This document shows, piece by piece, positions 12,930-63,480 of a stretch of 64,000 bases of DNA (positions are counted from its first letter, which is position 1; each line of letters begins with the position of its first letter). A program made the position numbers and the translations under genes. Origin of the DNA: Acidimicrobiales bacterium (GTDB lineage: Bacteria; Actinomycetota; Acidimicrobiia; Acidimicrobiales; CATQHL01). The stretch spans positions 418,407 through 482,406 of the forward strand of contig CBDEFI010000006.1 in the NCBI GenBank assembly GCA_965237375.1, in the 5' to 3' direction. The notes below the pieces were generated by a model. It was given only the letters and a program-made list of their open reading frames with translations, was not told where the DNA came from and made no database searches.

Positions 12930-13205
12930 TGGACTCGGCTCTTGGGCGTCCGCCCGCGCCCTTCCAGCAGCACACTCACGCAGAGAGCACGTCACGGGGG
13001 CATCCTTGCCCTCTCGATCGTTCCCCGCCGGCAAGACAGCAACGACCACCGCCCGTCCGGGCGCCGCATCGACCCCGGAGAACTCCCGGTCATACCCACC
13101 GAGTCGCGTGAGAAGAAGTGTGGGAGATCGTCCAGAGAGAGCTCTCCAAATACACTCTGACCAGGCTGTTCCCGAGATCGTATGATTCCCCCAGCTCCGC
13201 TCTGG
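12930..13205 (+). promoter_or_regulatory. Island-end module: ~230-bp conserved arm + paired GTG(A/G)GA(A/G) boxes + degenerate ssrA-3'-end core
   Basis: Homologous to 63255-63480 (gttggactcggct...ggcaagacagcaacgaccaccgcc...). Boxes lie at 13108-13114 and 13119-13125. The core gattcccccagctccgctctgg (13184-13205) compares with the ssrA end gattccccccagctccactttgg. Confidence 0.55.
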
Positions 13206-13417
13206 CCCGTTCTTTCACGCGGCCTTTGAGTTCTCACGAGACCGCCATAAGGCCGTGAGCCCTGTGCGCGACCGAGTGCTAGGTCGGTTGAGCCGATATT
13301 CCGCCCATGGCCGGTGTTGGCGAATGGTCCGTTTCGGTTCGTTCCAGCGGTCGTGTCGTGCGTGCCTGGTACGTTGGCGATGTTCGTGACGTATTTTCTC
13401 GTCAGGGGAGGGATTCG

Positions 13418-15142
13418 GTGAGGCACCGCTGTTGCCTGATACCCCTTCTGATCGTGCTAGCGGTGCTGGCTGTGGGTTGCGCCGCGCGAGAGCCCCAAAC
13501 CGGGCCGGCTGCTGAGGTTGCATCCGAGTCTGCGCCGGAGACGACGGACGCAGCGACGTCCTCACCTCCGGCCGATTGCGATTTCTCTGACCACGCCGAG
13601 GGTGTGCTGGACTCGGTGTTTCAGGTCGTGACGGATGACGGCATCGGTACTGCGTTCTATCTGGGCGACCGGGAGTGGCTCACTGCTGCTCATGTGGTTG
13701 GCACCGCCAGCAGCATCGCCCTCTCCAACGGCCCGAGCGACGTGTCAGCGTCCGTGAAGGGCATCGACTACAACGCGGACTTGGCGCTGCTGGAGGGTGT
13801 ACCCGCCGGAGGGAAGGCGGTGCAACCGCTCCGCATAGAAGAGGCTACGCCGCAACCCGGCGATGCAGCGATTGTGGTCGGGTATCCGCTCTATCAGGAA
13901 GACTCTGCGTCCGTCAGCCGTGGCGTGGTCTCACGGCTGGAAGATGATGATTTTGGAGAACTCATCGTGTCGGACGCCTCCGTCAATCCCGGCAACAGCG
14001 GTGGCCCCATGCTGAACGAATGCGGCAACGTAATCGGGGTCGTCTTTCAGAAGTACGTTGGATTTGATGTAGAAGGCATCGGGTATGCGATATCAGCCAA
14101 TGACGTAACGTCGGTTCTGCCCCGACTGCGAGATGGATTCAAGGGCACGCCTGGACCAACGACGACGCTCGGTGACTCTTCAACGCCGAGCGGCACAACA
14201 CTGCCTCCGGCCCCAGCAATCTGGACGGTTACTGAGACGGAGCCGGACTTACTGACCGGCGAGACCTTCCCCATTGCATTCATCACTGCATCAGACTACG
14301 AGCGGGACTTCGACCTATATGACCCACCTGTGTTGGGTATTTCCTGCGATGGGACATGGGGACTTTGGTGGGGTGGTGGTTATGTGGCTGCTCCCTATGG
14401 GGGCGGGATTCCGGCAGCGTACCGGGTAGGTGATGGTCAGGTGTTCGCTCTTGAATGGAACGAGTACTCTGACAACGAGTCCATGTCGCTCTCGGGTGCG
14501 GATGCTGAGCAACTGGGAGAGAGTGTATTGCAAGCCTCGCCCACAGAGGAAATCATCATTAGAGCCTGGAACTATGATGACTCTGAGATTGGTACTGCCG
14601 TGTTCAGCCTGGATGGCCTTTCGGAGGCGGTTCTTAAAATGAAGAGACGATGTGTGCCCTTGTTCGCCCAAACGGTAACGGATGAGGTCATTTCAGGATC
14701 GTTCGCTTCGGGTCAGTGGGTCCGGTGGGTTTCAGAACCTGTGAACGGTATGTTCATTCCCGGCACCCGAGGCATGGCCATGGCAGTCGTTTGTGTGGGT
14801 GAGAGTGACAACGGCGTGCTATTCATGCACTCGATTCCATTGGCGACACAGGAGGAATACCAGTTGTGGTACTGGTTGGGTAGCTCATTTGACAAGGGGA
14901 ACCAAACTCTGGCTCAAGTCGACCGTGACGACAATCTGTTGTTTATGCAATGGTACGACGAGAACAGCTTTATTCGAGCACTAGACGCGGACACGACAGG
15001 AACGCTTCAGGTAGAAGTCAAGAATCTAGACGGTTCCGAGACAGTGGGAGGGGCGGCCGAGTTTGATATAAGCAGGTGGCCGGAGGCGAAAGCAGCCTTG
15101 CAGGCCGAATGCTTAACCCGCTGGCACCGTAAGGATCTCTAG
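13418..15142 (+). CDS. Secreted/lipoprotein trypsin-like (S1C/Trypsin_2) serine protease with a large uncharacterised C-terminal region
   Basis: GTG at 13418 follows GGGGAGGG. Signal/lipobox LAVLAVGCA. Catalytic-triad context: WLTAAHVV, DLALLEG, NPGNSGGPMLN. The C-terminal ~330 aa has lower GC and no family I recognise. Confidence 0.75.
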   Translation: MRHRCCLIPLLIVLAVLAVGCAAREPQTGPAAEVASESAPETTDAATSSPPADCDFSDHAEGVLDSVFQVVTDDGIGTAFYLGDREWLTAAHVVGTASSIALSNGPSDVSASVKGIDYNADLALLEGVPAGGKAVQPLRIEEATPQPGDAAIVVGYPLYQEDSASVSRGVVSRLEDDDFGELIVSDASVNPGNSGGPMLNECGNVIGVVFQKYVGFDVEGIGYAISANDVTSVLPRLRDGFKGTPGPTTTLGDSSTPSGTTLPPAPAIWTVTETEPDLLTGETFPIAFITASDYERDFDLYDPPVLGISCDGTWGLWWGGGYVAAPYGGGIPAAYRVGDGQVFALEWNEYSDNESMSLSGADAEQLGESVLQASPTEEIIIRAWNYDDSEIGTAVFSLDGLSEAVLKMKRRCVPLFAQTVTDEVISGSFASGQWVRWVSEPVNGMFIPGTRGMAMAVVCVGESDNGVLFMHSIPLATQEEYQLWYWLGSSFDKGNQTLAQVDRDDNLLFMQWYDENSFIRALDADTTGTLQVEVKNLDGSETVGGAAEFDISRWPEAKAALQAECLTRWHRKDL

Positions 15143-15303
15143 GATCGCGTCGGGGATCTAGCCCAAACCACCTTCCCCCGGTTGCGGCAGATGACGGTGG
15201 CTAACGTGCACTGAAACCACGGGCTTGCTAGCTGTTTCGTTGTGAGCGTCCACAGCGTTACAGGGAGCACTGGCTAGAATTGTAGGCGGATTCCGTTACC
15301 CGC

Positions 15304-16995
15304 CTAGCTATCTCTGGGAAATCTGGCGCTGGTAGTGCCTTCAGTTGTTGAGAGGCTGCTTGCTTCATTGTCGTGATTGACGGCGGTGACCGCGACAGTG
15401 TATGTGGTGCCGAATCGGAGGTTCGGGCTGGTATGTGATGTGCCGGTCGTCCTGTAGAGCCTGCTCTGCCATGGCGGAATATCGCCAATGGCGGGGCGGG
15501 AATACCGCACTAGGTAGTGATCGATCGTCGCACTCCCCGAATCCGACGGCGGCGACCAAGTGACCACAATCTGCCTCACACCGTGCGCCGCCGCGCTCAC
15601 ATTCCGCGGTGACGATGGCAACTCGGCAGGTGGTGTTGTCACGGAGCTAGTGGCCTCGGGACCTGAACCGAATGCGTTCTCAGCGACCACCCGCATCGTA
15701 TAAGTGGTATCAGTACGCGGATTCCTTACCGCAAACCCGCGATCGCTCGCCGACAGAAAGTAAGGACCGAATATCCGCCCGGGTCGTGAGATCGTCAGTG
15801 TATAGCCGGTAGTCGGCGATCCGCCGTCGCCCAAAGGCGGTGACCAAGAGGCAATAACTCGATCTCCATCCGTCGACCTGTCGAACTCAAAACGGGCGTT
15901 CAATGGATTATCGGCGTCGACCGACTCGCCAATCGTGAGCGGCAGTGCTTCATCGGTCGAATCATCAGGGGTGCCGGTCGTCGTGCAGCTGTTCGGCGCG
16001 ACCGCCAGATTGACCTCGTTGTTCCTGATCCGCAGACTGCTGGAGGCGATCTGGCAGGTAGCGCCGGCGTCGTTCACGAACGTGGCGGACAAGTCATATT
16101 CGCAGATGTCATTGACCACCAGGGGGATCTCGACGGGTTCGTCCACGACGGTCCACGACATCGAGCCGCTCGCCCCGCTGGTGCTGATGCCCGGGTCGCA
16201 ACCATGCCGCGTCTGCCAAGACACCGTATAGACACCAGCAACCGTGTCGGTCCTGATAATGATGACCTGCCTGGTGCCGGTAGGGGTGCCGGTCCCCGTG
16301 GGGGTGCCAGTAGGAGTGCAGCTGTTCGGCTCGACCACCAGATCGACCTCGTTGTTGCTGATCCGCAGACTGCTGGGGGAGATCCGGCAAGCGGCGCCGG
16401 CAGCGTTCTCAAACGTGGCGGACAAGTCGTATTCGCAGGTGTCATTGACCACCAGGGGGATCTCGACGGGTTGGCCCACGACGATCCGCCACATTGAGCC
16501 GCTCGCCCCGCTGGTGCTGATGCCCGGGTCGCAACCATGCCGCGTCCGCCAAGACACCCAGTAGGAACCAGCAACCGTGTCGGTCCTGATCGTGATGACC
16601 TGACTGGTGCCAGTAGGAGTGCAGCTGTTCGGCTCGACCACCAGATTGACCTTGTCGTTGCTGATCCGCAGACTGCTGGGGGAGATCCGGCAAGCCGCGC
16701 CGGCGGCGTTCAGGAACGTGGCGGACAAGTCGTATTCGCAGATGTCATTGACCACCAGCGGGATCTCGACGGGTTCGTCCACGACGGTCCACGACATCGA
16801 GCCGCTCGCCCCGCTGGTGCTGATGCCCGGGTCGCAACCATGCCGCGTCTGCCAAGACACCGTATAGACACCAGCGACCGTGTCGCTCCTGACAATGATG
16901 ACCTTCAGATCGGCGGCGGCTGGACTCGAGGCCAGCACCACGGCCGCACCAAGCAGACCGGCGACAGACACGACGCCGAAGACGAACTTTCTCAT
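15304..16995 (-). CDS. Secreted protein: three tandem ~110-aa Cys-containing repeats + two fibronectin type III-like domains
   Basis: Signal peptide MRKFVFGVVSVAGLLGAAVVLASSPAAA. It has 3x (TVAG.Y.VSW.TRHGCDPGISTSGASGSM...VEIPLVVND.CEYDLSATF.NAAGA.C.I..SSLRI.N..V.L.V.PNSCT). FN3-like motifs are GGSPTTGYTLT and SGSATIDHYLVRY...YTVAVTAVN. Confidence 0.75.
   Translation of the reverse strand: MRKFVFGVVSVAGLLGAAVVLASSPAAADLKVIIVRSDTVAGVYTVSWQTRHGCDPGISTSGASGSMSWTVVDEPVEIPLVVNDICEYDLSATFLNAAGAACRISPSSLRISNDKVNLVVEPNSCTPTGTSQVITIRTDTVAGSYWVSWRTRHGCDPGISTSGASGSMWRIVVGQPVEIPLVVNDTCEYDLSATFENAAGAACRISPSSLRISNNEVDLVVEPNSCTPTGTPTGTGTPTGTRQVIIIRTDTVAGVYTVSWQTRHGCDPGISTSGASGSMSWTVVDEPVEIPLVVNDICEYDLSATFVNDAGATCQIASSSLRIRNNEVNLAVAPNSCTTTGTPDDSTDEALPLTIGESVDADNPLNARFEFDRSTDGDRVIASWSPPLGDGGSPTTGYTLTISRPGRIFGPYFLSASDRGFAVRNPRTDTTYTMRVVAENAFGSGPEATSSVTTPPAELPSSPRNVSAAAHGVRQIVVTWSPPSDSGSATIDHYLVRYSRPAIGDIPPWQSRLYRTTGTSHTSPNLRFGTTYTVAVTAVNHDNEASSLSTTEGTTSARFPRDS
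15890..16905 (-). repeat. Three tandem ~330-bp coding repeats inside 15304-16995
   Basis: Nucleotide-level similarity produces repeated off-frame ORFs, for example 16109-16390 versus 16442-16693. Confidence 0.8.
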
Positions 16996-17172
16996 CCCGC
17001 TTCATGTCCCCCTCGATCGTCGGCCCCCACCACCACTCCGGAGCAGTTGCTGGGATCGTAGTCAACCTGGCTCGGGTCAAGGCTCTTACCGTCCGGGAGT
17101 CTGAAGGAGGCGATCTACCCCAGAGTTCTCGCGGCCGGGTGAGTGAACCTCCCCGGGACGTTTCTATAGATG

Positions 17173-17879
17173 TCAAGTGCGGGTTGTGAGGGTGGCGAGG
17201 TCGGCTCGGAGGGTGCGGTAGAGCTCGCGGGGCGACGAAGCGTTTGAGGCAGCGGATGACTTCTTTCTTGGTCTTGCCTTCGGCGAGGCGGCGGTCCATG
17301 TAGCCGCGAGTTCGTTCGCAGTAGCGCAATCGGACGAGGACGATCATGTGCAGGGCTCGGTTGGCTGCGCGGTTGCCTGGGTAGTTGAGCCGGTGACGGC
17401 TGGTGCGCCCGCTCGACGCGGGGACCGGCGCGGTTGCGCACAGGTGAGCGAAGGACGCCTCGGAGCCGAGCCGGTCGATGTTCTCGCCCGCGGCGACGAG
17501 CAGGGTCGCGGTGTGGTGAGTGCCGCATCCGAGACGGGACACCGTCGAGGGCGCCGCGGCGGCGACCAGCCGGTCGAGCCGGCGCTCCAGATCGGCGGCC
17601 TCGGAGCCGAGCCGGGCGATGCGACGCCCCAGACTGCGCAACGCCGTCTTGGCGGCCTGGGCGGGATCGGCGAGGCGGTCGGTGTCGGGGCGCAGTCGGG
17701 CGCACACGGCAGCCTTGGCCTCGAGGGTCCGACGGCCGTCGAGCTGGTGGCGCAACGCGGCAGGGGCCGTGACGAGCAGGTCGCCGAGCTGGCACAACGC
17801 GGCGGCGCGGGCCTTGATAGCGCTGTTTCGGGCGACGCTGAGCTGGCGGATCGCCTCGACGATTCCGGTGGTGTCCTTA
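17173..17879 (-). pseudogene. IS110-family transposase, C-terminal half (truncated by IS1380 copy B, plus a frameshift)
   Basis: ...AIRQLSVARNSAIKARAAALCQLGDLLV...LGCGTHHTATLLVAAGENIDRLGSEASFAHLCATAPVPASSGRTSRHRLNYPGNRAANRALHMIV...KTKKEVIRCLKRFVA. An extra C near 17232 breaks ...RELYRTLRADL...*. The DEDD N-domain is missing. Confidence 0.8.
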
Positions 17880-19310
17880 GCCTGGATCCACCGGTGGGGT
17901 CTGGTCTGTGGGGGCTAGGGGTGCGCGGAAGTGCCTCGCTGACCTGGGAGAATAGCCGTTAGCAACAGCGGCTACGGCCCGAGTTCGGGAGGCACTTCCT
18001 GTGAGTGAAGTATCGCGCAAGATTGATCGGTTCGGGGTGGTTTTCGACGACGAGTCGTTGGTGGCCGATGCGGGCTTGTTGGCGGCGGGCACGCTGCTGA
18101 GCCGGTTGGGTGTGGCGGCGATCGTTGACCGTGTGGTGTGCCTGTCGGGGCGCGCGGGTGGGGCGGGTCCGGGTCGCAAGGTGGTGACGTTGGTGGCGGC
18201 GATGCTGGTGGGCGCGACGCACATCGATCACGCGAATCGGTTGCGCGCCGGCGCGACGCGGCGGGTGTTGGGGTTCACGGTGATGGCGCCGTCGACGTTG
18301 GGGACGTTCCTGCGTTCGTTCACGTGGGGTCACGTCCGCCAGTTGGACAAGGCGGCCGGCGAGGTGCTGCGCGCGGCGTGGTTGGTCAGCGGCGGCCCCG
18401 GGGAGGATGCGATGACCATCGACGTGGACTCGACGATCTGTGAAGTGGTCGGCAAGGCGAAGGCCGGCGCCGCCTACGGCTACACCGCCGAGTTGGGCTA
18501 TTGCCCGTTGGTGGCGACCCGCGGCGAGACCGGCGAGGTGCTGCATGCCCGCCTGCGCAAGGGGTCGGCCAGAGCGGCAACGCCCATTTCGTCGCCGAAA
18601 CCGTCCACCGCGCCCGACGCGCCGGCGCGACCGGCGAACTGACCGTGCGCGCCGACGCGGGGTTCTGGTCCTATGACCTCCTCGACACTCTGGAGCGCCT
18701 CAAGGTGCGCTGGTCGATCACGATGCCGCTGTACGCCCACGTCAAAGCCGCCATTGATGCCATTGCCGACGCGGACTGGACGCCGATCGACTATCGGCTC
18801 GGCGGCGAAGCGCACGTGGCGGCGACCACCCTCGTCGCCGGCGCCCGCGGCGAGGGGCGCAAGCTGCGCCTCGTGGTGCGCCGCAGCCGCCTCACCGACG
18901 AAACACAAGCGGCGTTATGGCCCGACTGGCGCTACCACGCCTTCGTCACCAACACCACATCTGACACCGTCGCCGCCGACGTGTTCCACCGCCAACACGC
19001 CACCGTCGAACTCGCCATTCGCGACCTCAAGAACTCCACCGGCCTCGCCCACCTGCCGTCGGGACGCTTCGCCGCCAACGCCGCCTGGCTGACCTGCGCC
19101 ACCCTGGCCCACAACCTCTACCGCTGGATCAACCACCACACCCCCAACCGCCGCGGCCGACTCACCGCCGGGCAAACCGTCCGCAACCAACTCCTCGCCC
19201 TCCCCGGACGCCTCGTCAACCACGCCGGACGCACCATCTTGCGCCTACCCGCCCACTGGCCCTGGGCGCCCACCTTCCACACCACCCTCACCAACATCCG
19301 CAACCTCCCC
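17880..19310 (+). mobile_element. IS1380-family element, copy B (abutted at its 3' end by IS3 type 1)
   Basis: Same sequence as copy A but without the nested IS3 type 2. The junction with IS3 type 1 (…caacctcccc|tgttctgg…) is identical in both copies. Confidence 0.8.
18001..19310 (+). pseudogene. IS1380-family transposase with an internal frameshift (~18560)
   Basis: ORFs 18001-18642 and 18501-19424 join into one IS1380-type protein only after a frame change following LHARLRKGSA. The C-terminal read-through enters IS3. Confidence 0.8.
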
Positions 19311-19398
19311 TGTTCTGGTTCTGAGTTCGTGTCCGGTTTTGGGTGGTTGATTAGCCCACATTGGGGGTGGGAGCGTGGCGTTGTGAAGGGAGCGTCAG

Positions 19399-19740
19399 AT
19401 GAGCAGTTCTTCGAAGTCCGGTGAGCGTGGCAGGCGCCGTCGGCGGTTCTTGTCGCCGGCGGAGAAGTATGAGGCGTTCGTGCAGGTGCTGACCGGTGAG
19501 ATGACCGTCGCTGCGTGCGCGGATCATTGGGGGGTGGATCGTTCGACGATCATGAAGGCCCGCGAGGTGGCCAAGCGGGGCGCCCTGGAGGCGTTGGCGT
19601 CGTCGCGGCCGGGGGTGCGCGCGGGCGGTGAGGATCCCGAGTTGGCAATGGCCCGCGGTGAGGTGGCGCGGCTGGGTGAGGCGCTCAAGGAGATGGCGGT
19701 GAAGGTCACGTTGTTGGAGGGAAAAGAGCGTTGGGGGTGA
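19399..19740 (+). CDS. IS3-family transposase OrfA
   Basis: Identical to the 6500-6841 product. Confidence 0.9.
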   Translation: MSSSSKSGERGRRRRRFLSPAEKYEAFVQVLTGEMTVAACADHWGVDRSTIMKAREVAKRGALEALASSRPGVRAGGEDPELAMARGEVARLGEALKEMAVKVTLLEGKERWG

Positions 19741-20774
19741 ACGCCGGCGTGCCCCCGCGTGTCGATGCCGGTGTCAAGGCCGCCTTGTTGGACCTCGTCG
19801 ATGGTGCCGTGGGCGAGGGTTGGGCGGCGTCTCGGGCGTGCGCTGTGTTGGAGTTGGATTCCCGCCGCTGGCGGCGGTGGCGGCACCGCCAGGCGGCCGG
19901 CCGCCTCGACGACAGCGCCGCCGGCGGCGGCGCTGTGCACGCCATCACGCCCGCCGAGCAGCAGGCGATCTTGGAGCTGTTCGACGCGTGGGGCGACATC
20001 GACGGCGGCTACCGCAAGCTCGCGCACCGCGCCTCCTATGAGGGGCTCGTGTGGGTGTCACCGTCGACGGTGTACCGCACCCTGGCAGGTCAGGGCCTTG
20101 TCCTACCCGCCCGGCCTCAGCGCAGTCCCGCTGCGGCGCGCCCGATGCCGGACTGGGTGCGCTGGGAACGCCACCAGATCTGGATCTATGACATCACCCA
20201 CTTCCCCCGCGCGAACCAGGTCGCCTACGCCATCTTGGACGTCGTTACCCGCAAATGGCTCGCCACCCTCGTCAGCGTCGAGGAGACCGCCACACAGGTC
20301 GAAGTCGTCTTCTGCGACGCGCTCGACGCCGAAGGACTCTGGGAACACATCGAGGCCCGCCAAGCCAACAGCGACGACGCCGAGCCGATCCTGCTGGCCA
20401 TGAGCGACAACGGCCCTCAAATGCGCGCCGGCACCACACGAGAGTTCTTCGCCATGTGCTCCATCGCCGCGCACTACGGCCGCCCCGGCACCCCGACTGA
20501 CCAAGCATGGATCGAAACGCTCTTCGGCCACATCAAAACCGAATGGCCCCACCTCGAACAAATCACCGACCCCAACACGCTGCGCACCGAACTCGACACC
20601 GTCCGCGACGACTACAACACCCGACGCCTGCACGCCTCCCTCCGCTACGTCACCCCCGACGACGAACACCAAGGACGTGGCGACACCATCCGCCAGGCCC
20701 GCCGCGACGGCCTCACCCGAGCCCGCCGCGACCGCATCGCCTACCATCGCAAAAACAAACCAACCCAGCCATGA
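19731..20774 (+). CDS. IS3-family transposase OrfB
   Basis: 347 aa, near-identical to the 5466-6509 product. Confidence 0.9.
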   Translation: MGVNAGVPPRVDAGVKAALLDLVDGAVGEGWAASRACAVLELDSRRWRRWRHRQAAGRLDDSAAGGGAVHAITPAEQQAILELFDAWGDIDGGYRKLAHRASYEGLVWVSPSTVYRTLAGQGLVLPARPQRSPAAARPMPDWVRWERHQIWIYDITHFPRANQVAYAILDVVTRKWLATLVSVEETATQVEVVFCDALDAEGLWEHIEARQANSDDAEPILLAMSDNGPQMRAGTTREFFAMCSIAAHYGRPGTPTDQAWIETLFGHIKTEWPHLEQITDPNTLRTELDTVRDDYNTRRLHASLRYVTPDDEHQGRGDTIRQARRDGLTRARRDRIAYHRKNKPTQP

Positions 20775-21107
20775 CCCCCCACCCCGAACGTGGGCTAATC
20801 AAACCGCCCAAAGCGGACATTCACTCAGAAGCACCTCACGTTCAGGGGGCGGTACGCCTAAGTTGCCGCCAGGTTGTTGGCGTCGGCCAGAATCCGTAGT
20901 CGATGACGGTGATGACCTCGCAGTCGGTGCTCATGTCGGCCCAGGCATCGGCACGGCCCATGCCGCCAAGGTGACGGACCAGTGATCCTCCCCGGGTCTT
21001 GCGCAGGCTGTGGTGTGCCCCGTGTTCCGCGCGGTCGGAGGTGAGCCCCGGGTTTCGCGCGGTCAGGTCATTTGATCGGTGGCGGAGGCGAGGGCACCCC
21101 TGAGACG

Positions 21108-21365: not shown

Positions 21366-21451
21366 TAGCTTGGTCGCGGATCCCGGGGCACGCCTCAGCG
21401 GGCGCAATACCCGGGGAGAGTCACCGACCGCCGCGTGGGTAGCGTGGGGCT

Positions 21452-22090: not shown

Positions 22091-22166
22091 ATTTCTCCGA
22101 TCAGCGGAGGGATCATCGCCATCTGATCGGACCTCGCCGCCGAGCGCTATTCACGCTATTCATATG

Positions 22167-49329: not shown

Positions 49330-49336
49330 CTCCGAG

Positions 49337-55024: not shown

Positions 55025-55108
55025 ACCGGCCCGCGCTCCTTGACCCGGGAGAGAGATCGCGGTCCTTGGGCGGTGGTACCCTCTACCTCACTTGGTAAGG
55101 AATTCAGG

Positions 55109-56182: not shown

Positions 56183-56268
56183 ACGCCGCCGGACCCTGCG
56201 CGCCTTTCCGCTTGGACCCTACCCCGCTCCGACTGGCGGACCGCTTGCGGGGCAGTCCGGTACCTACG

Positions 56269-57180
56269 ATGGCCAACATGCCCAACAACGCCTCGCGGCA
56301 TGACGAGGAGGCCGCGGCGGCGGTGATCGCTCGGCTGGTCGATGTCGCCAACACGCGGCGACCGGACCCCGGCAAGGCCAAGGCACCCGACTGGCGCTTG
56401 AAGTTGGCTAGCGGTTCGGTTGTTTACGTAGAGGTGACCACGAATGTCGACGGCGAGACCCGCGCGTTCCATACGGCAGTCACCCAGCGAGACGGTGCTG
56501 CTCGCGAATGGCCCGATGATCGCTTGGCGTACTGGTGGGAAGTATTGCTTGCCGACCACGACCCGGCGTCGAGCCGCGGTGTTCGGCGTGTCAAGGATGT
56601 GGTTCCGGAACTGGGTGGGATACTGGCCGATGTCGAGTCCGCGGGCGGTTCCCCCGCTGAGATGGCAGCACGCGCAGCGGAGGCACTGAGTAGGTCGCCC
56701 CTGTTCACATCACCGCTCTTCGCTGACCCGCGACGATTCAGCCCCTACCCACCAGAATGGCCAGACGACAGTTCATGGCATGCGCAGAATGTCAGACTCG
56801 TGGGAGAACCCGACTTCGTCGGCCCCGGCCCGGGCGGGATCCTCACCATAGGCCTCACCGCGGACGCCAGCGCGGGCCAGGTAGCGCTCGTGACGGACGT
56901 ACGACGCTGCATCGCAGCAAAGAGGGCGTCGGACCAGTTCGCTGGCCACGAAGGGGCGCGTTGGTTGGCGGTGATGCTCAGCGGACTTGCTGCGGACCAA
57001 CTATGCCGCAATGGTGAACGACGCCCGTTGCCACGGTTCCCGCGTCTCGATATCACGTTCGACTACTTCGACGAGGTGTGGGCAATCACCGAGGGGAGGG
57101 CCGGGTACGTGGTTCTGCGCCTCACACAGGGAGGCACAGATCAGCGCCACATCAAGTGCTCCCAATTGTCGTCGCCCTGA
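56269..57180 (+). CDS. Hypothetical protein
   Basis: 303 aa from the ATG at 56269 (MANMPNNASRHDEEAAAAVIARL...). I recognised no family. It lies 87 nt downstream of the NERD gene on the same strand. Confidence 0.45.
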   Translation: MANMPNNASRHDEEAAAAVIARLVDVANTRRPDPGKAKAPDWRLKLASGSVVYVEVTTNVDGETRAFHTAVTQRDGAAREWPDDRLAYWWEVLLADHDPASSRGVRRVKDVVPELGGILADVESAGGSPAEMAARAAEALSRSPLFTSPLFADPRRFSPYPPEWPDDSSWHAQNVRLVGEPDFVGPGPGGILTIGLTADASAGQVALVTDVRRCIAAKRASDQFAGHEGARWLAVMLSGLAADQLCRNGERRPLPRFPRLDITFDYFDEVWAITEGRAGYVVLRLTQGGTDQRHIKCSQLSSP

Positions 57181-57371
57181 CCCAGCGCCTGTCGTGCTGG
57201 GTCAACTCATGTCAGCTGTGTCTCTCGCGGCTGATCTGCCGCCCGCGCGCTCCGAAGTCAAATGCCTCCCGGTCGTACTCGCGAGAGCGCTGCCCGTCGG
57301 GCACTGCGCCAAGAGCGAGAGTCCAGCAGCCGAGGAGCGTGCGCATATGTGGGCGGGTTGAGCCCGGACTC

Positions 57372-57610
57372 AAATGTGGAGACCCCCCTCTTCAAAATGT
57401 GGCGCGCTCCAACGGGTCCTGGGAATCGGCAGGTCAGGTGTGGTGGCTAACACCCCACTTTGGACGCTCATGAGGCCCCATGTGCACCCATGAGCCGCCA
57501 TGACGCCCCAGAACTCCGAGGTCACAGCGCCGCGTGCAGTTGACACTGATTCGCCCGTTCTTGCTGGGTGTCAGCTATCACGCCATCCCGCGTGGGAATA
57601 GACGTGGGAA
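57372..57610 (+). promoter_or_regulatory. Island-junction module
   Basis: AAATGTGG(A/C)G lies at 57372-57381 and 57395-57404. Degenerate core: ctaacaccccactttgg. Conserved arm: acgctcatgaggccccatg...gttgacactgattcgc...tcagctatcacgccatcccgc. GTGGGAA lies at 57592-57598 and 57604-57610. Confidence 0.55.
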
Positions 57611-57714
57611 CTGCGTCGCCTGGGAGCGCTCACCACCGCCACCGATAAAGCAAACTGACCCCGCGCAACCCGAGGCACACCTCAGTGGGGGTCCCTGTGT
57701 TTGGTGGAGGCGTT

Positions 57715-58110
57715 GGTTTGAGTCGTGGCCTGGTGACCTGAGTGTCGTTGACGGTAGTACCGATCTTCGGCTTCGGCCGACGGGACAACGTAGCAACCAA
57801 TGGAATTACGCTCAGTATGAAGCGCCTCGGTGGCGCTGCATCTGGTTGGCGGCCCCAAGTTCGCCGCCTGATCCCGAGATCTGCTGTTCAGACATCGCCG
57901 AGGACGGTCACCCGCAGGATCTCGTCTGCCTCGAGTTGGAGCACCTCGCAGGCGATGGCGAGGACATCGTCGACTTCGAGGTAGATCACCTCACGCGTCG
58001 GCCAGCATGTTCAGGAGTTGCTCGTGGCGCTGGAGGTTTCGCTGCAGCATCGCCTGGAACTCCGGATCGCGGTGGCGCCGCTCGACGTGCGCGGCCAGAG
58101 CATCTCGAAC
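57715..58110 (-). pseudogene. Decayed second copy of the RHH-antitoxin / truncated-doc locus
   Basis: Aligns to 12213-12740 with a ~110-bp internal deletion in doc. The RHH gene is cut after ...ALAAHVERRHRDPEF-type sequence at ~58110. Confidence 0.65.
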
Positions 58111-58116
58111 GACGAC

Positions 58117-58600
58117 GAGACCACCGAGGCGCTGCGCGCCGCAATCGCTGACGCTGCCGGCCGGCGATCGTCAGGCTCCGGAGCGGCGCCGTGCTACAGC
58201 CTCTCCGGCGGGCAGCCGAAGATCGCCCTGGCACGCACCGCTGACGGCTGGCAGTGGCCCACCGGAGCGGCGCCCTCCACCCACATCCTCAAGCCACCGC
58301 CCGGATCGTCAGCCAACGAGCAGCCCATCAACGAGCATCTGTGCCTAGCGACAGCGCGACGCCTCGGCCTCGACGCCGCCGAGAGCACACTCGCCGTCTT
58401 TGACGACATACCCGTCGCCGTGGTGAAGTGCTACGACCGGACCCCGGCCTCGCCGGGCCGGCCCGCGTCCACCAAGAGGACACCGCCCAGGCGCTCGGAC
58501 GGCCGCCGGACACAGATGCCGAAACCCTCGGCGGCGTTTCGACGGTGCACATAGACGACGTGCTCACCCGCCGACACGGGAAACAACGTCGATTCAGGCG
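58117..58600 (+). pseudogene. HipA-family kinase fragment (internal portion, frameshifted)
   Basis: YSLSGGQPKIALARTADGWQWPTGAAPSTHILKPP...NEHLCLATARRLGLDAAES...VKCYDR. It continues in another frame with RVHQEDTAQALGRPPD. Both the N- and C-termini are missing. Confidence 0.65.
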
Positions 58601-58789
58601 GCGCTCCCATGACCTGCAGTCTCCCCGAGGGGTGCGACAACGACAATGGCTACCGGCCCCGTGCGGGGCGGGAGAGGCTGGGAGTATCTGTCGCGCCACG
58701 GCAGCGGGACCCGCCACCGCGGCCGGCGCGCTGGACGAGCGATATAGGGGCCCTAACGGCCATCGGGCACCAGGCGGCGCCCTGGCCTG

Positions 58790-59761
58790 CTAGATGTGCA
58801 TGCTGGGGACGTTGTCCCCGAGGGTTGAGGCTGGTGTTTTCCAGCCGAGCGCTCCGTGGGTTCGGTGGCAATTGTAGTAGTGGAGGAAGCCCTGGTAGGC
58901 GTTGGCGCGTTCGGTTTCGCTTCCCCAGGGGCGGATGTAGGCCCATTCCTCGAGGAGGATGCGGTGGAAGCGTTCGACTTTGCCGTTGGTCTGGGGCCGG
59001 TAGGGGCGGGTCTTCTTGACCTTCGTTGCGGTGCGTTTACAGGCTTTGTGCCAGTCTTTGGACCGGTAGCAGCCGCCGTTGTCGGTAATGACGCGTTCGC
59101 AGGTCACGCCCCAGGTGGCGAACCAGGCGTGGGCGCGCAACCAGAACTCTGCGGCGGTTGGGCCACACTCGTCGTCGAGGTGCTCGCTGTAGACCAGGCG
59201 GCTGCGGTCATCGAGGGCGGTGTGCAGGTAGCGGTAGCCGGCCTTGGCGCCCGGCGTGGGGGCGTTGCCGCGTCCGTGGACCCTCCAGCCGCCGCCGGGA
59301 GGGATGGCGGGCAGCTTCTTGATGTCCACATGGACGAGTTCACCAGGCCTTTCGCGCTGATAGCGCACCGGCGCCGGTTTGGTGGCGCGGTCACCGCGGT
59401 CGAGGCGCCCCAGGCCGGCGTCGGCGAGGATCTTCTGCGCCGTGGACGGCGCCACGCCGACCCTGTGGGCGATCCAGCCAGCGCCGCGGCGCCGACAGCG
59501 ACGCAGGCGGATCACCTCGGCGCGCACCTCCGGCGGTGTACGCCCCGGGCTGCGGCGCGGCCGGCTGGAGCGGTCCAACAGACCGTCGGGTCCTTCCGCG
59601 AGGTAGCGGTCGCGCCACTTGCGCACCGTCTTGGGGTCCACCTGGAACCGCTCCGCGGTCGCCGCGACACCCCAGCCCTCCACAATCAGCACATCAACCA
59701 TCCGCCGCCGCATCGCCGGCGTCAGCTTCGCGTTCAGATGCTGGGTCCTAACCTGTGCCAT
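58790..59761 (-). CDS. IS481-family transposase
   Basis: 323 aa, differing from copy 1 at a few residues. The stop is supplied by the flanking CTAG. Confidence 0.9.
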   Translation of the reverse strand: MAQVRTQHLNAKLTPAMRRRMVDVLIVEGWGVAATAERFQVDPKTVRKWRDRYLAEGPDGLLDRSSRPRRSPGRTPPEVRAEVIRLRRCRRRGAGWIAHRVGVAPSTAQKILADAGLGRLDRGDRATKPAPVRYQRERPGELVHVDIKKLPAIPPGGGWRVHGRGNAPTPGAKAGYRYLHTALDDRSRLVYSEHLDDECGPTAAEFWLRAHAWFATWGVTCERVITDNGGCYRSKDWHKACKRTATKVKKTRPYRPQTNGKVERFHRILLEEWAYIRPWGSETERANAYQGFLHYYNCHRTHGALGWKTPASTLGDNVPSMHI

Positions 59762-59876
59762 GAGCCCTCCTTGCGGGGTGTGAGCTGGTTACTTGCCCAC
59801 AGCATCGCCGGAGGGCTCACCTCAACGGTGAACCCTCAATCCCATCCACCCAGGGACAACCTCCCCGGTTGTCACA
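58795..59876 (-). mobile_element. IS481-family element, copy 2, with CTAGA flanking repeats
   Basis: Same IRs as copy 1. ctaga lies at 58790-58794 and 59878-59882, the right copy offset by 1 nt. Confidence 0.9.
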
Positions 59877-59877
59877 C

Positions 59878-60530
59878 CTAGACGTCGATCCCTGACGACG
59901 GCGACAACGGGAAGAGGCGCCCGATCTCCGCCGCGGCGGCCGCCACGGTCGCGCCCAGATCCTCGTAGTCCACCGGGAACTCGGCATATCGCGACGCCGG
60001 GCGGTTCGGGAAGGCCCGGAGGATCTCGGCCAGGCCGTGCGGTCGAAAGCCGCCGTCCTTCCGTGTGGCGAGGGTGCACAGTTCGCTGACACTGAACCGC
60101 TCGGTGAGCGCCGCGAAATCGACAAAGTCCCGGGGCAGGGCGCACCACACAGGGCGAGCACCTTGTCGGCGGCCAAATCGTCCAACGCCAGGACGGTGCT
60201 CTCCTCGATGCGCACCGGCGCCTCCAGGCGGAAGTCGCTGCCGAGGTCAACGATTGTGGAGTCATCGCTGGAGGTGACCTGCAGGCGAGCGAAGTGATCC
60301 CTCTCCTCCTCGCGGGTGACCTGCAGCCCGTCCGCCTCGAGGGCGGCCTGGACGAGATCCACCACCTCGGCATGCGGCGACGGGAAGCGGGCGAAAAAGT
60401 CGAGATCCCGAGTGCGGCGGTCGACCACACCGGACACGACCAGACCGCCGCCGCCGGCGAGAGCTAGTTCGACGTTGTCACCGACGTCGCCGAGAGTGCG
60501 GCGGATCCGCTCCTGCAGTGCGGTGAGCAC
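59878..60530 (-). pseudogene. AbiEii-like nucleotidyltransferase with one frameshift (~60145)
   Basis: VLTALQERIRRTLGDVGDNVELALAGGGGLVVSGVVDRRTRDLDFFA...ALDDLAADKVLAL, then a +1 shift to ...LPRDFVDFAALTERFSV.... The stop codon lies in the IS481 target CTAG. Confidence 0.7.
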
Positions 60531-60533
60531 CTG

Positions 60534-60923
60534 CTAGTCGAGCAGGTCATGGGCGCGTAGCCAGCGCTCCCACGGCGCACGAATGTGCGGCGACAGATGC
60601 AGTTCCCCCCACATGGCCACGACCTCGTCGACGTCGATGAACCACAGCACGTCCTCGTAGCGACCCTCAGTCATCACCACCTGGTAGGCGTCGAGGCGCT
60701 GACGGCGATCATCCAAGTCGTACTCGAAGGGCGGCGACCAGGCGACGTGGGGCGGCAGGCGCACCACACCGGAGGCCTTCGGCCGCGAACGGTCCAACAG
60801 CCCCTCGGGGATCTTCGCCGGCGGACGCGACAAGACACGCGTCGGCGACACCGTCGTCGGATGCGGCCCACCAAGCGGGAACCACTCCTCCTCGGTCATG
60901 CTCGGCGGGGACGGATGGGCCAT
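60534..60923 (-). CDS. Small conserved hypothetical protein, paralog 3 of 3
   Basis: MAHPSPPSMTEEEWFPLGGPHPTTVSPTRVLSRPPAKIPEGLLDRSRPKASGVVRLPPHVAWSPPFEYDLDDRRQRLDAYQVVMTEGRYEDVLWFIDVDEVVAMWGELHLSPHIRAPWERWLRAHDLLD. It stops 3 nt before the NTase GTG. Confidence 0.7.
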   Translation of the reverse strand: MAHPSPPSMTEEEWFPLGGPHPTTVSPTRVLSRPPAKIPEGLLDRSRPKASGVVRLPPHVAWSPPFEYDLDDRRQRLDAYQVVMTEGRYEDVLWFIDVDEVVAMWGELHLSPHIRAPWERWLRAHDLLD

Positions 60924-61005
60924 GCGCCCAGAGTACCCCCAGGGTGCGCCAAGGGCGCCGGTCATCACATCTAGCCGCAGGTCGTCAAGTCGAGATAGGG
61001 CGGCG

Positions 61006-61140
61006 CTACCGGGCAGCAAGCTGCTCCCCAACACCACCACGGCGGGCGGCCCCCGCCACCGACACCTCACCACGCAACACCGACAACACAACTTGCAACT
61101 CGCGCTCAGGGCTTCCGTGGGACGGTTTGGACATCAGCAT
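61006..61140 (-). pseudogene. Transposase OrfA (HTH) remnant, 44 codons
   Basis: MLMSKPSHGSPERELQVVLSVLRGEVSVAGAARRGGVGEQLAAR* resembles the N-terminal HTH of IS3/IS481-type OrfA proteins. It is below the ORF-track length cut-off. Confidence 0.4.
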
Positions 61141-61444
61141 CTCCATGCATCAGACCCAACCTCGACCTGAGCAAGAAATCCTGACCCGGGACAAAGCCAC
61201 CCGCGCCGGTCGCCCCACCGGCGATCCCAGAATGCGACAGCACCGCGTCATTCGACAAACGCCATCAAGCCTGCCGCCGCCAGATGAACAACCAAGCGCC
61301 GAGAATGAACAGATCCTCCAGAATCCACCTCGACAACGAATCAGCCGCCACGCCCCGCTCCTGCTCGTCGCCAGTACCGACAGTGATACCAACACTCCCC
61401 GCGTTCTGCGTTCGCCCAGCACAAGCTCCGTACGCGGTCCGTCG

Positions 61445-61618
61445 AATCGTGGAGCCCCACTCCACTCGGGAGCGCTCATGCGACCCCATGTGTCCCCATG
61501 AGTCGCCATGACGACCCAGAAATCCGAGGTCACGGCGGCGCTTGCGGTTGACACTGATTCGCTCGTGCTTGCTGGGCGTCAGCTATCACGCCATCCCGCG
61601 TGGGAATAGATGTGGGAA
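61445..61618 (+). promoter_or_regulatory. Island-junction module
   Basis: Degenerate core: gtggagccccactccactcggg. Conserved arm: agcgctcatgcgaccccatgtgtccccatgagtcgccatgacg...gttgacactgattcgc...tcagctatcacgccatcccgc. GTGGGAA lies at 61600-61606 and 61612-61618. Confidence 0.55.
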
Positions 61619-61702
61619 CTGCGTCTCGTGGGAGCCCTCACCTGCGCCTCGGCGGCGTCTCTCGGTCAGTTGGTGTTCAGTCGCGACAGGGTTGAGCCGG
61701 CG

Positions 61703-61963
61703 TCACGCTCGAAACGGATCGGCTTCGACGATCGCTGTGACGGTCTTGCGGCCCAGCCCGGACGCCTCGGCGATCTGGCGAAGTGAGGCGCCGACGCGGT
61801 GCGCCGTGCGAATCATGTCGTCGCGGATGGCGATCTCCTCCTGCGCCCGCTCGGCACTCAGGCCGACCACGGCGAGCGCCGTGCCGATCTCGTAGTCGAG
61901 GCTGCTGCGGTACTTGTCCAATGCCGCGTTCGCGGCGGACACATCAGCGTCGCTGTAGCTCAT
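61703..61963 (-). CDS. Small HTH protein (C-terminal sigma-70 region-4/Hin-like HTH)
   Basis: ATG at 61963 follows GGAGGAG. 86 aa: ...RDDMIRTAHRVGASLRQIAEASGLGRKTVTAIVEADP. Confidence 0.6.
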   Translation of the reverse strand: MSYSDADVSAANAALDKYRSSLDYEIGTALAVVGLSAERAQEEIAIRDDMIRTAHRVGASLRQIAEASGLGRKTVTAIVEADPFRA

Positions 61964-62139
61964 TGCTCCTCCCACAGGCCCGCAGCCAGCTTGTCGCGAA
62001 TAGCGATGAGGGTCGGGATCCGCGGCGACAGCTCGCCCGACGCCTCGGCGACATTGAGATGCGCGACGACCATTCCAAGCAACTCCAACGCTTCGACCCG
62101 CTCCAACCCGAGGCGCACCATTGGCCCGTATCGGACCAT
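61960..62139 (-). CDS. Small ORF (53-59 aa) translationally coupled to the HTH gene; absent from the ORF track
   Basis: (MVRYGP)MVRLGLERVEALELLGMVVAHLNVAEASGELSPRIPTLIAIRDKLAAGLWEEQ*. Its TGA overlaps the downstream ATG (ATGA). GGGGGAGG lies upstream of the ATG at 62139. Confidence 0.45.
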   Translation of the reverse strand: MVRYGPMVRLGLERVEALELLGMVVAHLNVAEASGELSPRIPTLIAIRDKLAAGLWEEQ

Positions 62140-62311
62140 CGGCTCGGACCGAACCTCCCCCGGGGTTCCCCCAAGCTGACCGCGCGAAACCCGGGTTGCA
62201 CCTGAGCCAGCGCGGAGACCCGGGGAGGCTCAGAATAGGCTGGGGATGGTGGGAGGTCGGACGCAGAGGAAATCGGACGCTGATGAATTGCTGTGCTTCC
62301 TCTGAGCTGAG

Positions 62312-63244
62312 TTGACTGCGGACCAGCACACGGCCGGATCGCGGTCGCGGCGGCTGGGCGCGGCTGCCATGCTCGCCTCCGGGCTGGGCTTCGGTATGTC
62401 GGGAGTGTTCACCCGCAGCATCGAGGGCGGTGCCTGGGAGATCGCAAGCTGGCGCGGCCTGACCGCGACCCCAGTCATTGTGGCCTATGTCTGGTGGCGC
62501 CGGCGGCGCGACGCTGATCATGTTCGGGTCCGCCTCAACCCGGTTTCAGCCGCCCAGGCGCTGGTGCTGCTCGCTCTCAACGCTGCGGGCATGGTGCTGC
62601 TGGTCACTGCGCTTCAGAAGACGGCTGTGGCCAACGTGTCGGTGATCATGGCGACCATACCGTTCATGGCAGCGGGGCTCGGGTGGCTGATTCTGCGTGA
62701 GGGTCTGCGGCGATCGACGGTCATCGCTGCGGTGGTGTCGTTCGGAGGTGTGATCCTGACCGTGGCCGGGAGCCTTGGGGCCGGCAATCTGGAGGGGGAT
62801 CTGTTGGCCGTGGCCCTGTCGCTCACGTTGGCTTCGCTGATCGTGCTGATACGCCGCTTCCGAGGCACCGATGCTCTGTTGGCGCAAGCGGGATCAGGAG
62901 TTGTGCTGTTCGCGGTGGCGCTCGTGGTGGCCGACCCGTTCGGGATGGACGCCTCCGAGATGCCTCTGACCGTGGCCTTCGGGCTGGTGTTCGCTGTGTC
63001 GCTGGTGCTGTGGACTGAGGGGGTCCGGCGAATTCGGGCAGCGGAGGCCGCTCTCTTGGCCACGACTGAGACACCCTGCTCGGTTCTGGCGGCGTGGATT
63101 GTGGTGAGCGAGGCGCCACCACTTGCCACGGTGGTCGGCGGGCTGTTGATCGTGGGTGCCGTGGTCACCCACACCCGGGCCGATCTGGTCCACGATCGGG
63201 TCAGTCGTCCATGGCAGCGCCAAGGGACCGGGCCGAAGATCTAG
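62312..63244 (+). CDS. DMT-superfamily (EamA-like) transporter
   Basis: About 10 predicted TM helices in two EamA-like halves (…ALQKTAVANVSVIMATIPFMAAGLGWLILREGL… / …LWTEGVRRIRAAEAALLATTETPCSVLAAWIVVSE…). The start codon is uncertain. Confidence 0.75.
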   Translation: MTADQHTAGSRSRRLGAAAMLASGLGFGMSGVFTRSIEGGAWEIASWRGLTATPVIVAYVWWRRRRDADHVRVRLNPVSAAQALVLLALNAAGMVLLVTALQKTAVANVSVIMATIPFMAAGLGWLILREGLRRSTVIAAVVSFGGVILTVAGSLGAGNLEGDLLAVALSLTLASLIVLIRRFRGTDALLAQAGSGVVLFAVALVVADPFGMDASEMPLTVAFGLVFAVSLVLWTEGVRRIRAAEAALLATTETPCSVLAAWIVVSEAPPLATVVGGLLIVGAVVTHTRADLVHDRVSRPWQRQGTGPKI

Positions 63245-63254
63245 CTTCTGGTCA

Positions 63255-63480
63255 CTCGGACTGATCCGCGCCCCGCTCGTTGGACTCGGCTTGTGGGAGT
63301 CCGGCGGCGACCCTTCAGCAGAACACTCTCGCGGAGAGCAAGTCGCGCGGGTGACCCTGCCCTCCCGATCGTTCCCCGCTGGCAAGACAGCAACGACCAC
63401 CGCCGTACCGACGCCAGATCGACCCCAGAGAACTCCCGGGCACACCTACCGGGACGCGTGGGAAGAAACGTGGGAAACCG
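63255..63480 (+). promoter_or_regulatory. Island-end arm (homolog of 12930-13130) truncated by an IS21 fragment
   Basis: gttggactcggcttgtggg...ggcaagacagcaacgaccaccgcc...cgcGTGGGAAgaaacGTGGGAAaccg (boxes at 63458-63464 and 63469-63475). Similarity ends at 63480, where the core would be expected ~60 nt further on. Confidence 0.5.

Follow-up and report, generated by a model that had tools for sequence, protein, structure and literature searches.

Junction modules around the tmRNA gene of an Acidimicrobiales bacterium as probable relics of stacked integrative islands with toxin-antitoxin and defence cargo

Introduction

A 64,000-nt stretch of the genome of an Acidimicrobiales bacterium (GenBank assembly GCA_965237375.1, contig CBDEFI010000006.1, forward-strand positions 418,407 to 482,406; here called the window) contains modules of about 230 bp with repeated GTGGGAA boxes, which lie on both sides of the transfer-messenger RNA (tmRNA) gene ssrA and separate segments of toxin-antitoxin (TA), abortive infection (Abi) and other defence genes. 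This raises the question of what the modules are and how they came to stand there. Probably, they are leftover attachment (att) junctions of integrase-type islands which were stacked at ssrA and later lost their integrases, the TA and defence cargo being left behind. Four observations carry this answer: the sequence anatomy of the modules, a module directly after the intact ssrA of a relative, an arm of the same layout between a tRNA-Ala gene and an integrase ATG, and breakpoints among relatives which are confined to the ssrA-like core. A module profile was built from the four full copies of the window and used in an nhmmer search of the window and of the relatives' contigs; the related assemblies (labelled L below) were reached through exact-protein look-ups.

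Anatomy of the Junction Modules

An earlier inspection of the letters alone (the sequence-only reading) had reported pairs of GTGGGAA boxes at nine loci. The pairs are real and were correctly placed: in this window of about 67% G+C, the exact pattern GTGGGAA-N5-GTGGGAA occurs six times and never in 100 shuffled sequences, and allowing up to two mismatches raises the number to eight, compared with a shuffle mean of 0.41. At the ninth locus, 21435-21450, the period is 9 nt and the match is a weak variant lying on the other strand.

21111, 21337 and 24626 (-): exact pairs, pattern match
57592, 61600 and 63458 (+): exact pairs, pattern match
13108 (+) and 27685 (-): pairs added by the search with up to two mismatches

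The proposal that the boxes belong to a conserved unit at four loci also held, as repeat finding, self-BLAST and a profile hidden Markov model align four full modules with pairwise identities of 71-85% (64-85% once a copy from the relative L005 is added).

21035-21273 (-): module m21; core 21257-21277, hairpin, S box 21195, boxes 21111-21129, stub, two copies of the repeat R
27614-27849 (-): module m27; core 27830-27847, hairpin, S box 27769, boxes 27685-27703, stub, R 27614-27639; nhmmer E 1.8e-73
57445-57685 (+): module m57; degenerate core 57447-57464, hairpin, CAGAACTCCGAGGTCAC at 57509, boxes 57592/57604/57620, stub, R 57656-57681; nhmmer E 2.3e-75, supported by alignments A1, A2 and A3
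61454-61686 (+): module m61; core 61454-61471, hairpin, S box 61517, boxes 61600/61612/61628, stub CTCACCTGCGCC; nhmmer E 2.3e-67

The scores of the four modules (E 1e-67 to 1e-75) come from a model containing those same copies and hence express mutual resemblance only. All four are built in one order. They open with a copy of the ssrA 3' end (the core) and a hairpin, continue with a CAGAA-N3-CGAGGTCA box (the S box) and three GTGGGAA boxes, and lead into the first codons of an integrase. The description of the boxes as pairs was right as far as it went, but within the modules they form a triplet spaced by 12 and 16 nt, the third box being degenerate and lying 16 nt past the second. Together with CTCACCnCCGCC behind it, a match to the integrase codons L-T-A-A, this third box aligns to GTGGGAATGCTCACCGCCGCC, the codons M-L-T-A-A of an integrase in the relative L030, the ATG being replaced in the window modules (alignment A3). 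Approximately 5-20 degenerate start codons are all that the modules retain of the integrase, and 20842-21060, which had been considered a possible integrase fragment, is not one, as it holds just this much. The hairpin directly follows the core in all seven arm sequences folded (z-scores of -1.3 to -4.9); its sequence varies while its place beside the core does not. Finally, m21, m27 and m57 terminate at R, with the motif ...GATCAAGCGAGCTGACCGCGCGAAACCCGGGGCACACC; m21 is cut off by an insertion sequence (IS) at 20839 and holds R at 21044-21065 and 21012-21037.

The cores copy the last ~21 nt of ssrA (43694-43714).

43325-43711 (+): intact tmRNA gene (ssrA), Rfam RF00023, 69.3 bits, 94.5% identical to the ssrA of L005
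40915-41403: SmpB gene upstream of ssrA
35610: tRNA-Leu (Rfam)

An exact 21-nt copy, TTCCCCCCAGCTCCACTTTGG, is found in m21 only (21257-21277 vs 43694-43714); the cores of m27, m57 and m61, as well as those at 13186 and 63535, carry substitutions. As a separate observation, ARAGORN misses this tmRNA that Rfam detects at 69 bits, and the CCA end is apparently not encoded. Between smpB and ssrA, an open reading frame (ORF; 41406-43265, +) encodes a 619-aa protein of ~37-aa (111-nt) tandem repeats without a Pfam family; a repeat gene 65-70% similar to it lies on the opposite strand in an element of the relatives called E1 (e.g., L004 792-3167).

Junctions in Relatives

The placement expected of an att junction is seen in L005, where SmpB, the tmRNA gene (174-560; 94.5% identical to that of the window) and a module (547-730) follow each other with no gap between tmRNA and module. 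The same layout is also found joined to an integrase at another target. In L030 and L031, tRNA-Ala (9754-9830) is followed by a module-like arm (nhmmer E 1.9e-14) and an integrase with PF13356, PF22022 and PF00589 domains. This arm in L030 features a CAGAA..GGTCA box and GTGGGAA at 9967, 9979 and 9995, with the integrase ATG at 10001 inside the third box, and the 12/16-nt spacing is common to it and the window modules (alignment A3). A near full-length integrase is joined to this layout at tRNA-Ala, and fragments alone are found at ssrA. The integrase concerned, P0033, is the best homologue of the one integrase fragment of the window and stands immediately after tRNA-Ala. Its reading frame in L030 (10001-11190) is frameshifted near the C-terminus, and the catalytic end continues in another frame. 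The tRNA-Ala island of L030 additionally holds AbiEii and HipA/helix-turn-helix (HTH) cargo, and tRNA genes of the lineage seem often to harbour small, decayed TA islands (also L032).

The arms of L005 and L030 bear on whether the modules could instead be regulatory units of their cassettes, with the boxes as operators of HTH or ribbon-helix-helix (RHH) proteins, the arm as promoter or leader and the likeness to ssrA incidental. A gene in the same direction usually begins 70-200 nt downstream of R, and box pairs with R but no core precede cargo in the window (24546-24649), in L018 (3845-3948, RF-1-domain gene) and in L026 (19101-19224, EamA), as such units would. Nevertheless, the same boxes precede the integrase ATG at tRNA-Ala, and the starting point of the modules coincides with the ssrA end and, in L005, with ssrA itself. 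Furthermore, the downstream genes belong to unrelated families, or are absent where the IS follows m21, and box pairs also occur 3' of genes (left arms after EamA). Consensus scans of the arm give no sigma-70-like promoter and leave a promoter role unsupported, and Rfam yields no match for the arm or the R leader at the gathering threshold or at E<=1. A purely regulatory role is accordingly very unlikely.

Another explanation would need no integrative element: the modules could be segmental duplications of the native ssrA 3' flank, made by homologous or illegitimate recombination. An arm directly after ssrA in L005, and in diverged form in L014, is what a native flank would show. L014, a close relative with a closed genome, shares 97-99% identity with the window where the two align. 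Behind its ssrA stand a perfect hairpin of another sequence and then CCCAGAAACCCGAGGT; the layout is retained and the sequence changed. Yet the flank of the window's own ssrA is unrelated to the arm, arms of the same layout follow tRNA-Ala and run into integrase genes, and the modules hold integrase start codons. Together with breakpoints which lie in the core rather than being distributed over 230 bp, this makes duplication of the flank highly unlikely.

These breakpoints are best seen in E1, which is identical in L004, L005, L006 and L007 from CCCCAGCTCCACTTGGGACGTCATG on and preceded by AbiEii, ssrA, Fic and EamA, respectively. The switch point is limited to a ~14-nt stretch shared with the ssrA end. 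Recombination at the core would confine the switch to these ~14 nt, which general homologous recombination over a 230-bp repeat would not predict. In addition, the right junction of the EamA element varies, with E1 in L007 and an HTH_38 gene in the window and L014. The serial accretion of integrative elements at ssrA suggested by the sequence-only reading thus gains support from the L005 module and from core-confined breakpoints among strains.

The breakpoints also allow a livelier picture, in which the array is still active and a P4-type integrase encoded elsewhere or incoming excises, reinserts and reshuffles integrase-less cassettes at any core. The array would then in effect consist of exchangeable TA/defence cassettes, and since any module copy supplies a core, the second array upstream of ssrA would be explained. 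In favour of this are the four left neighbours of E1, three of them on contigs from one sample, the variable right junction of EamA, the conservation of boxes, S box and hairpin in displaced copies of just 64-85% overall identity, and the many intact 382-aa integrases of the family in related metagenome assemblies. On the other hand, three of the four window module cores are degenerate, and neither a matching intact integrase or excisionase nor a circular or empty-site junction was identified. Contigs from one sample may also represent separate strains with independent histories, and homologous recombination in flanking DNA that swaps array segments would look alike. Continued movement is possible but doubtful.

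Searches beyond these assemblies returned little. A patterned scan of species-representative genomes with the hairpin CTCATGNNNCCCCATGNNNNNNCATGAG gave two chance matches (a Bacteroidales contig and a terminator hairpin in L003), the pattern being too narrow in that relatives carry GTCATGTGACCTCACG at this place. A scan of JGI metagenomes with CCNTGANGNCNCAGAANNNCGAGGTCA gave six loci which match the pattern alone, with neither extended module nor tmRNA. With the patterns chosen, the module family was not seen beyond the ENA/NCBI assemblies reached via protein look-ups.

Integrase Remnants

The statement of the sequence-only reading that no intact integrase is present is correct for the window, as tblastn with four intact family members finds a single fragment.

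3865-4263 (-): pseudogene remnant of a P4-type tyrosine integrase, residues ~26-170 of ~382; Pfam Phage_int_M E 3.5e-19, 67% identical to P0033

Its homologues form a large family of ~382 aa with PF13356 (arm-binding), PF22022 and PF00589 domains, many members of which are intact in related metagenome assemblies. No module was detected upstream of the remnant (4150-4750). One integrase gene per island, which islands of the Islander type require, is not found in the window.

In the sister species L033, a C-terminal P4-type integrase fragment (8083-8406, -; ~107 aa) lies directly after ssrA in the same direction, followed by a type I restriction-modification island, and L034-L040 carry such a fragment too. 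A search starting from it for an intact ssrA-linked integrase yielded nothing beyond fragments of 60-183 aa. The 87 homologues found measure 58-183 aa, with no full-length member among them. The fragment is therefore either a relic that has persisted for long and is widely conserved, or an independent small ORF.

A further recombinase-like gene was considered. In L004 (18883-19965), L006, L016 and L017, a gene of 341-360 aa matches PF00589 in its C-terminal part only and invariably has a full-length HipA kinase gene beginning within 5 nt of its end. The 360-aa protein of L004 was dropped as the array's integrase in view of its constant HipA partner, the lack of a window homologue and the lack of a link to modules.

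Left Arms and Order of the Array

Further repeats lie on the other side of the cores, referred to as left (P) arms, the hairpin-to-box side being the P' arm.

21274-21365 (-): type-1 P arm of m21, box pair 21337-21355, ~65 nt upstream of the core
57372-57446 (+): type-2 P arm of the element ending at m57, AAATGTGGAG/AAATGTGGCG repeats with a 23-nt period
63262-63549 (+): type-1 P arm downstream of EamA, box pair 63458-63476, terminal displaced core 63535-63549
12911-13205 (+): type-1 left arm, degenerate box pair 13108-13126, core 13186-13205, non-module right flank (peptidase gene)
24546-24649 (-): partial module, box pair 24626-24644 and m61-type stub; nhmmer model positions 143-240, E 6e-5

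Three types of P arm were distinguished: type 1 (m21, 13186, 63535, L006, L007) has a GTGGGAA pair ~65 nt upstream of the core, type 2 (m27, m57) has two AAATGTGGAG repeats, and type 3 belongs to m61 and L004. The type-1 arm of m21 is 79% identical to 13107-13205 and 77% to L006/L007. That after EamA, whose right flank is likewise not module-type, is 81% identical to 12911-13125 and 91-94% to L007, where E1 follows the core instead of the window's flank. The type-2 arm is shared with 27848-27922 (-), which takes in the left arm of m27 (27850-27922). The partial module has no core and no hairpin arm and is 78-88% identical to 61600-61698. A reading of the type-1 arm (also labelled 'X') as a small gene was rejected for lack of conserved reading frames.

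In two of the three types, GTGGGAA or GTGGAGA-like repeats stand ~65-85 nt upstream of the core, and one motif family flanking the core on both the P and P' sides is the expected look of arm-type integrase sites. Repeats at expected distances occur on the P' side in all modules and on the P side in types 1 and 2, and by this position they are putative integrase sites. The earlier suggestion that the periodic GTGGGAA repeats are arm-type sites gains from their position in L005 and in L030, where the arm runs into a P4-type integrase ATG.

From these parts, a formation of the array can be proposed. A module would be the ssrA-proximal end of an integrative genomic island, with the last 12-21 nt of ssrA as the crossover core. 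Its P' arm would comprise the hairpin, taking the place of the ssrA terminator, the CAGAA-N3-CGAGGTCA box and the three GTGGGAA boxes, and its tail would be the first codons of a gene for a P4-type tyrosine integrase, from a family with an N-terminal arm-binding domain. Each new integration would regenerate ssrA and shift the prior junction downstream, which would produce an array of ssrA, element, P arm of the newer element, core, P' arm of the older element, next element and so forth. During decay, the integrase genes would have been deleted from every element of the window, and the resulting cassettes with TA, Abi, defence and IS genes would resemble cis-mobilizable elements (CIMEs). The integrase presumably binds the boxes and represses its own gene, and the hairpin may end ssrA transcription.

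The right array has the order ssrA, defence island, m57, a 4-kb cassette, m61, the EamA cassette, a type-1 arm with core 63535, and HTH_38. Its displaced cores (57447, 61454, 63535) lie downstream of ssrA on the same strand, as expected of Islander-type islands with 3' fragments in direct orientation. The cores of m21 and m27 and that at 13186 do not follow this rule, being upstream of ssrA and two of them inverted. Cores with arms bound the intervals throughout, the core being exact in m21 alone. Compared with the window, the right array of L014 is shorter, and only the last 3.9 kb are common to both. The window segment 60138-63998 (L014 15384-19198, 97.5% identical) includes m61, whose L014 copy lies at 16654-16886.

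Independently of these junctions, two tandem 72-nt units occur in a core-genome spacer ~4 kb upstream of ssrA (39198-39339, +), each with a hairpin CATTCCGGCGAAGGCCGGAATC and, behind it, GATTCCCCCCAGCACCA, 16 of whose 17 positions agree with the ssrA core. Both L014 and L001 have the units as well; L033 has the hairpin and lacks the core-like stretch. A pseudo-att site is one possibility, a coincidental match another.

Cargo Between the Modules

Pfam and PADLOC confirm the TA and Abi genes which the sequence-only reading had assigned to the intervals: a small protein, HTH and nucleotidyltransferase (NTase) operon in three copies, RHH-Doc, AbiEi/AbiEii, AbiEii with a Zn-ribbon partner, and a HipA remnant. 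That account was incomplete, as one interval of 13.7 kb is devoted to phage defence and another carries an EamA transporter.

43712-57444: first interval after ssrA, defence island (13.7 kb); ssrA-side arm not module-type
47935-49365: PD-Lambda-1, in the first interval
49337-50608: type IV restriction endonuclease, in the first interval
50892-53782: KAP/PDC-S20 NTPase, split by an IS, in the first interval
53978-54979: IS30, in the first interval
55040-56182: NERD, in the first interval
57686-61453: interval m57-m61; HipA_C remnant 58018-58554, IS481 58787-59876, AbiEii-like NTase 59817-60530 (-), small partner protein 60534-61091 (-)
61687-63261: interval after m61; R motif 62159-62208 with hairpin leader, then EamA transporter 62312-63244
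21366-27613: interval between m27 and m21, mostly genes on the - strand
Genes on the - strand of this interval: small protein 27097-27486, HTH 26381-27208, NTase 25548-26525, RHH 25181-25390, Doc 24777-25184, Zn-ribbon protein 22742-24163, AbiEii ~22167-22850
+ strand genes of this interval: small-protein copy 21452-21772, NTase remnant

Neither integrase nor relaxase nor transfer genes were found among the interval ORFs with Pfam, NCBIfam and PADLOC, which is the loss of genes expected of CIMEs. The cargo changes between strains: in place of the 13.7-kb defence island, L014 holds a different 2.6 kb. Window 21879-24240 is 96% identical to L026. A 117-nt direct repeat (43794-43908 and 47616-47732, 90% identical) brackets the first 3.8 kb past ssrA without including the ssrA core, and could be a duplicated gene end or another element boundary.

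Elements of the IS30, IS481, IS110 and IS4 types are scattered across the region. This richness, along with the inverted pairs which the R sub-motif makes around cassettes, would suit modules that are termini of an IS or a miniature inverted-repeat transposable element (MITE) family with its transposase elsewhere. However, full modules are not inverted-repeat termini, have no target duplications and begin with a tRNA-type core. Self-comparison shows them as dispersed direct and inverted copies, never as paired termini, and no IS copy of the window shares a boundary or sequence with a module. Such an origin is extremely unlikely.

The Island Upstream of ssrA

Why modules lie on both sides of ssrA had been a puzzle for the accretion of islands at this gene. 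It is partly settled by the comparison with L014, which places the left modules in a separate insert.

3840-32790: left island, 29 kb of accessory DNA with m21, m27 and core 13186, absent from L014

The flanks correspond closely, L014 1-1070 to window 2770-3839 and L014 1698-12797 to window 32791-43711. The insert is edged by the truncated integrase on the left and an IS481 end (31703-32792) on the right. It lies 10 kb upstream of ssrA, and m27 and m21 point in the same direction, opposite to the right array. A simple inversion as source of the left array was rejected, since window and L014 are collinear to the left and to the right of the insert, and so was the idea of a paralogue of the distal ssrA flank (FN3 gene), to which only weak domain-level similarity was found.

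Core 13186 points opposite to m27 and m21 and lies within 9886-17875, between inverted IS copies of 99% identity; an IS-mediated flip could be behind its orientation. In each of the two composite copies of ~2.97 kb (5401-9885 and 17876-20839), an IS481-like element with 56-nt inverted repeats interrupts an IS4-type transposase, and the left copy is split further by another IS (7904-9410). Parts of the island are 93-96% identical to cassettes in other relatives; therefore, the same cassettes circulate within the lineage.

The R Repeat

R, at which three modules end, is a repeat of ~22-40 nt with the core CGCGCGAAACCCGGGGCACACC that occurs in accessory DNA only, in both orientations and also solo. 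The window holds six copies, compared with about none in shuffles, and 22 distinct contexts were found overall.

Window: 21012-21065 (-), 24344-24375 (-), 25433-25482 (+), 27614-27639 (-), 57656-57681 (+), 62159-62208 (+)
Relatives: L004 9232-9269 and 9927-9948; L018 3919, 6666 and 9924; L026 19195 and 20297

Four inward-facing inverted pairs were found (window 25455/27635, L004 9247/9948, L018 3923/6662, L026 19199/20293), and the contents of such pairs are an RF-1-domain gene, EamA, RF-1 with AbiEii, and small-protein/HTH/NTase genes. In the window, the stand-alone copy 25433-25482 (+) is paired with 27614-27639 (-) around the small-protein/HTH/NTase operon. R aligns loosely to integrase codons 6-17 (alignment A3). 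In L026, it is joined without a gap to the 5' half of an ssrA-type core.

On a conservative interpretation, R would be a relic of the integrase start; a bolder one makes it a second recombination site. On the latter a two-tier exchange could be built, in which a P4-type integrase acting in trans swaps cassettes at any ssrA-type core, while R, which appears to be derived from the integrase start or to overlap it, serves as a separate site moving single genes or operons. We regard this as unlikely. If true, escaped module copies would have let a second array grow 10 kb upstream of ssrA, and the locus would work in an integron-like manner from tRNA-type att sites, as a strain-variable reservoir of TA and defence genes.

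Weighing the Evidence

Several observations count against the interpretation of the modules as att relics of islands stacked at ssrA. There is no intact integrase in the window, and none was found beside an ssrA module in any relative. The sole integrase-bearing example has tRNA-Ala as its target, shares just 51-56% identity with the modules in its arm, and carries a frameshifted integrase. The arm gives no sigma-70-like promoter by consensus scan. With their degenerate cores, m27, m57 and m61 may no longer be sites of recombination. Moreover, m21, m27 and core 13186 sit in a separate insert of opposite orientation, which simple accretion does not predict, and random decay of integrases does not explain why the modules with a remaining stub share an R end or why solo copies of R occur in both orientations.

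Relation to Known Systems

The array had been thought to lie outside any described element class, which is wrong. Tandem arrays at tRNA and tmRNA genes have been described, the tmRNA gene being the most enriched integration target (Islander, PMC4383910), as have the decay of integrative elements to CIMEs and their subsequent accretion (ICESt1/ICESt3 family, PMC5704250). In Dehalococcoides, tandem ssrA islands are bounded by ssrA 3' repeats, and about half of them are without an integration module and were proposed to be cis-mobilizable (PMC3146451). The locus fits this described class of tandem tmRNA islands and is not a new one; its tyrosine integrase, its TA/defence cargo, the loss of all integrases and the off-target array are distinctive.

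The likeness to Dehalococcoides extends to multiple tandem islands downstream of a single tmRNA gene and to their role as a major source of strain-level variation. There, a serine recombinase module (DsiB/DsiA) adjoins attL and the cargo is reductive dehalogenases, whereas the window has P4-type tyrosine integrase remnants and TA, Abi and defence cargo; no Resolvase or Recombinase domain was found in the ORFs scanned beside the modules, and the stub behind the boxes corresponds to the start of a tyrosine integrase. In further contrast, every element of the window is without an integrase, arm-type repeats are present and one array lies away from ssrA. With CIMEs, the locus shares lost integration and transfer genes and tandem stacking at the 3' end of the target gene, and its arm-bearing cores would be the att sites which CIMEs keep. 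For these, cis mobilization by a neighbouring integrative and conjugative element was shown experimentally, whereas the window has no functional neighbour and no conjugation context, and mobility is suggested by strain comparison.

For IntS of KplE1, attL overlaps the int promoter, P' arm sites are present and int is autoregulated, an arrangement predicted for 61.5% of tRNA-linked int genes (PMC2951348). Similarly to KplE1 and Islander islands, the target 3' end is followed by P' sites and an int start reading away from it, as seen in L030 and as a stub in the modules. The P' sites of KplE1 share a TAAA motif and their binding was demonstrated, whereas the GTGGGAA boxes are assigned by position, the int gene being gone. 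Chromosomal integrons resemble the locus in their long arrays of small, promoter-poor, TA-rich cassettes with a repeated recombination site and strain-variable order. Unlike them, it features no IntI, attI or attC hairpins; instead, a tRNA-type core with duplex arm-type repeats joins multi-gene cassettes in both orientations, no IntI-like gene is found in the window, and the module hairpin stands beside the core rather than at cassette 3' ends.

Conclusion

The window offers a clean, alignable example of a tRNA/tmRNA island hotspot after long decay, in which att junctions, boxes and start codons outlive the integrase. The surviving cargo is almost wholly of the TA, abortive-infection and restriction type, which fits the idea that addictive or defensive genes persist in island graveyards and would account for what survived. 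From such junctions, the succession of integration events can be reconstructed and strain-level shuffling followed in metagenome assemblies. Two features, the off-target array and the R repeats, lie outside current models. If the cassettes still move in trans, possibly by an integrase encoded elsewhere, the locus would be a compact platform for the exchange of defence genes in an uncultured lineage.

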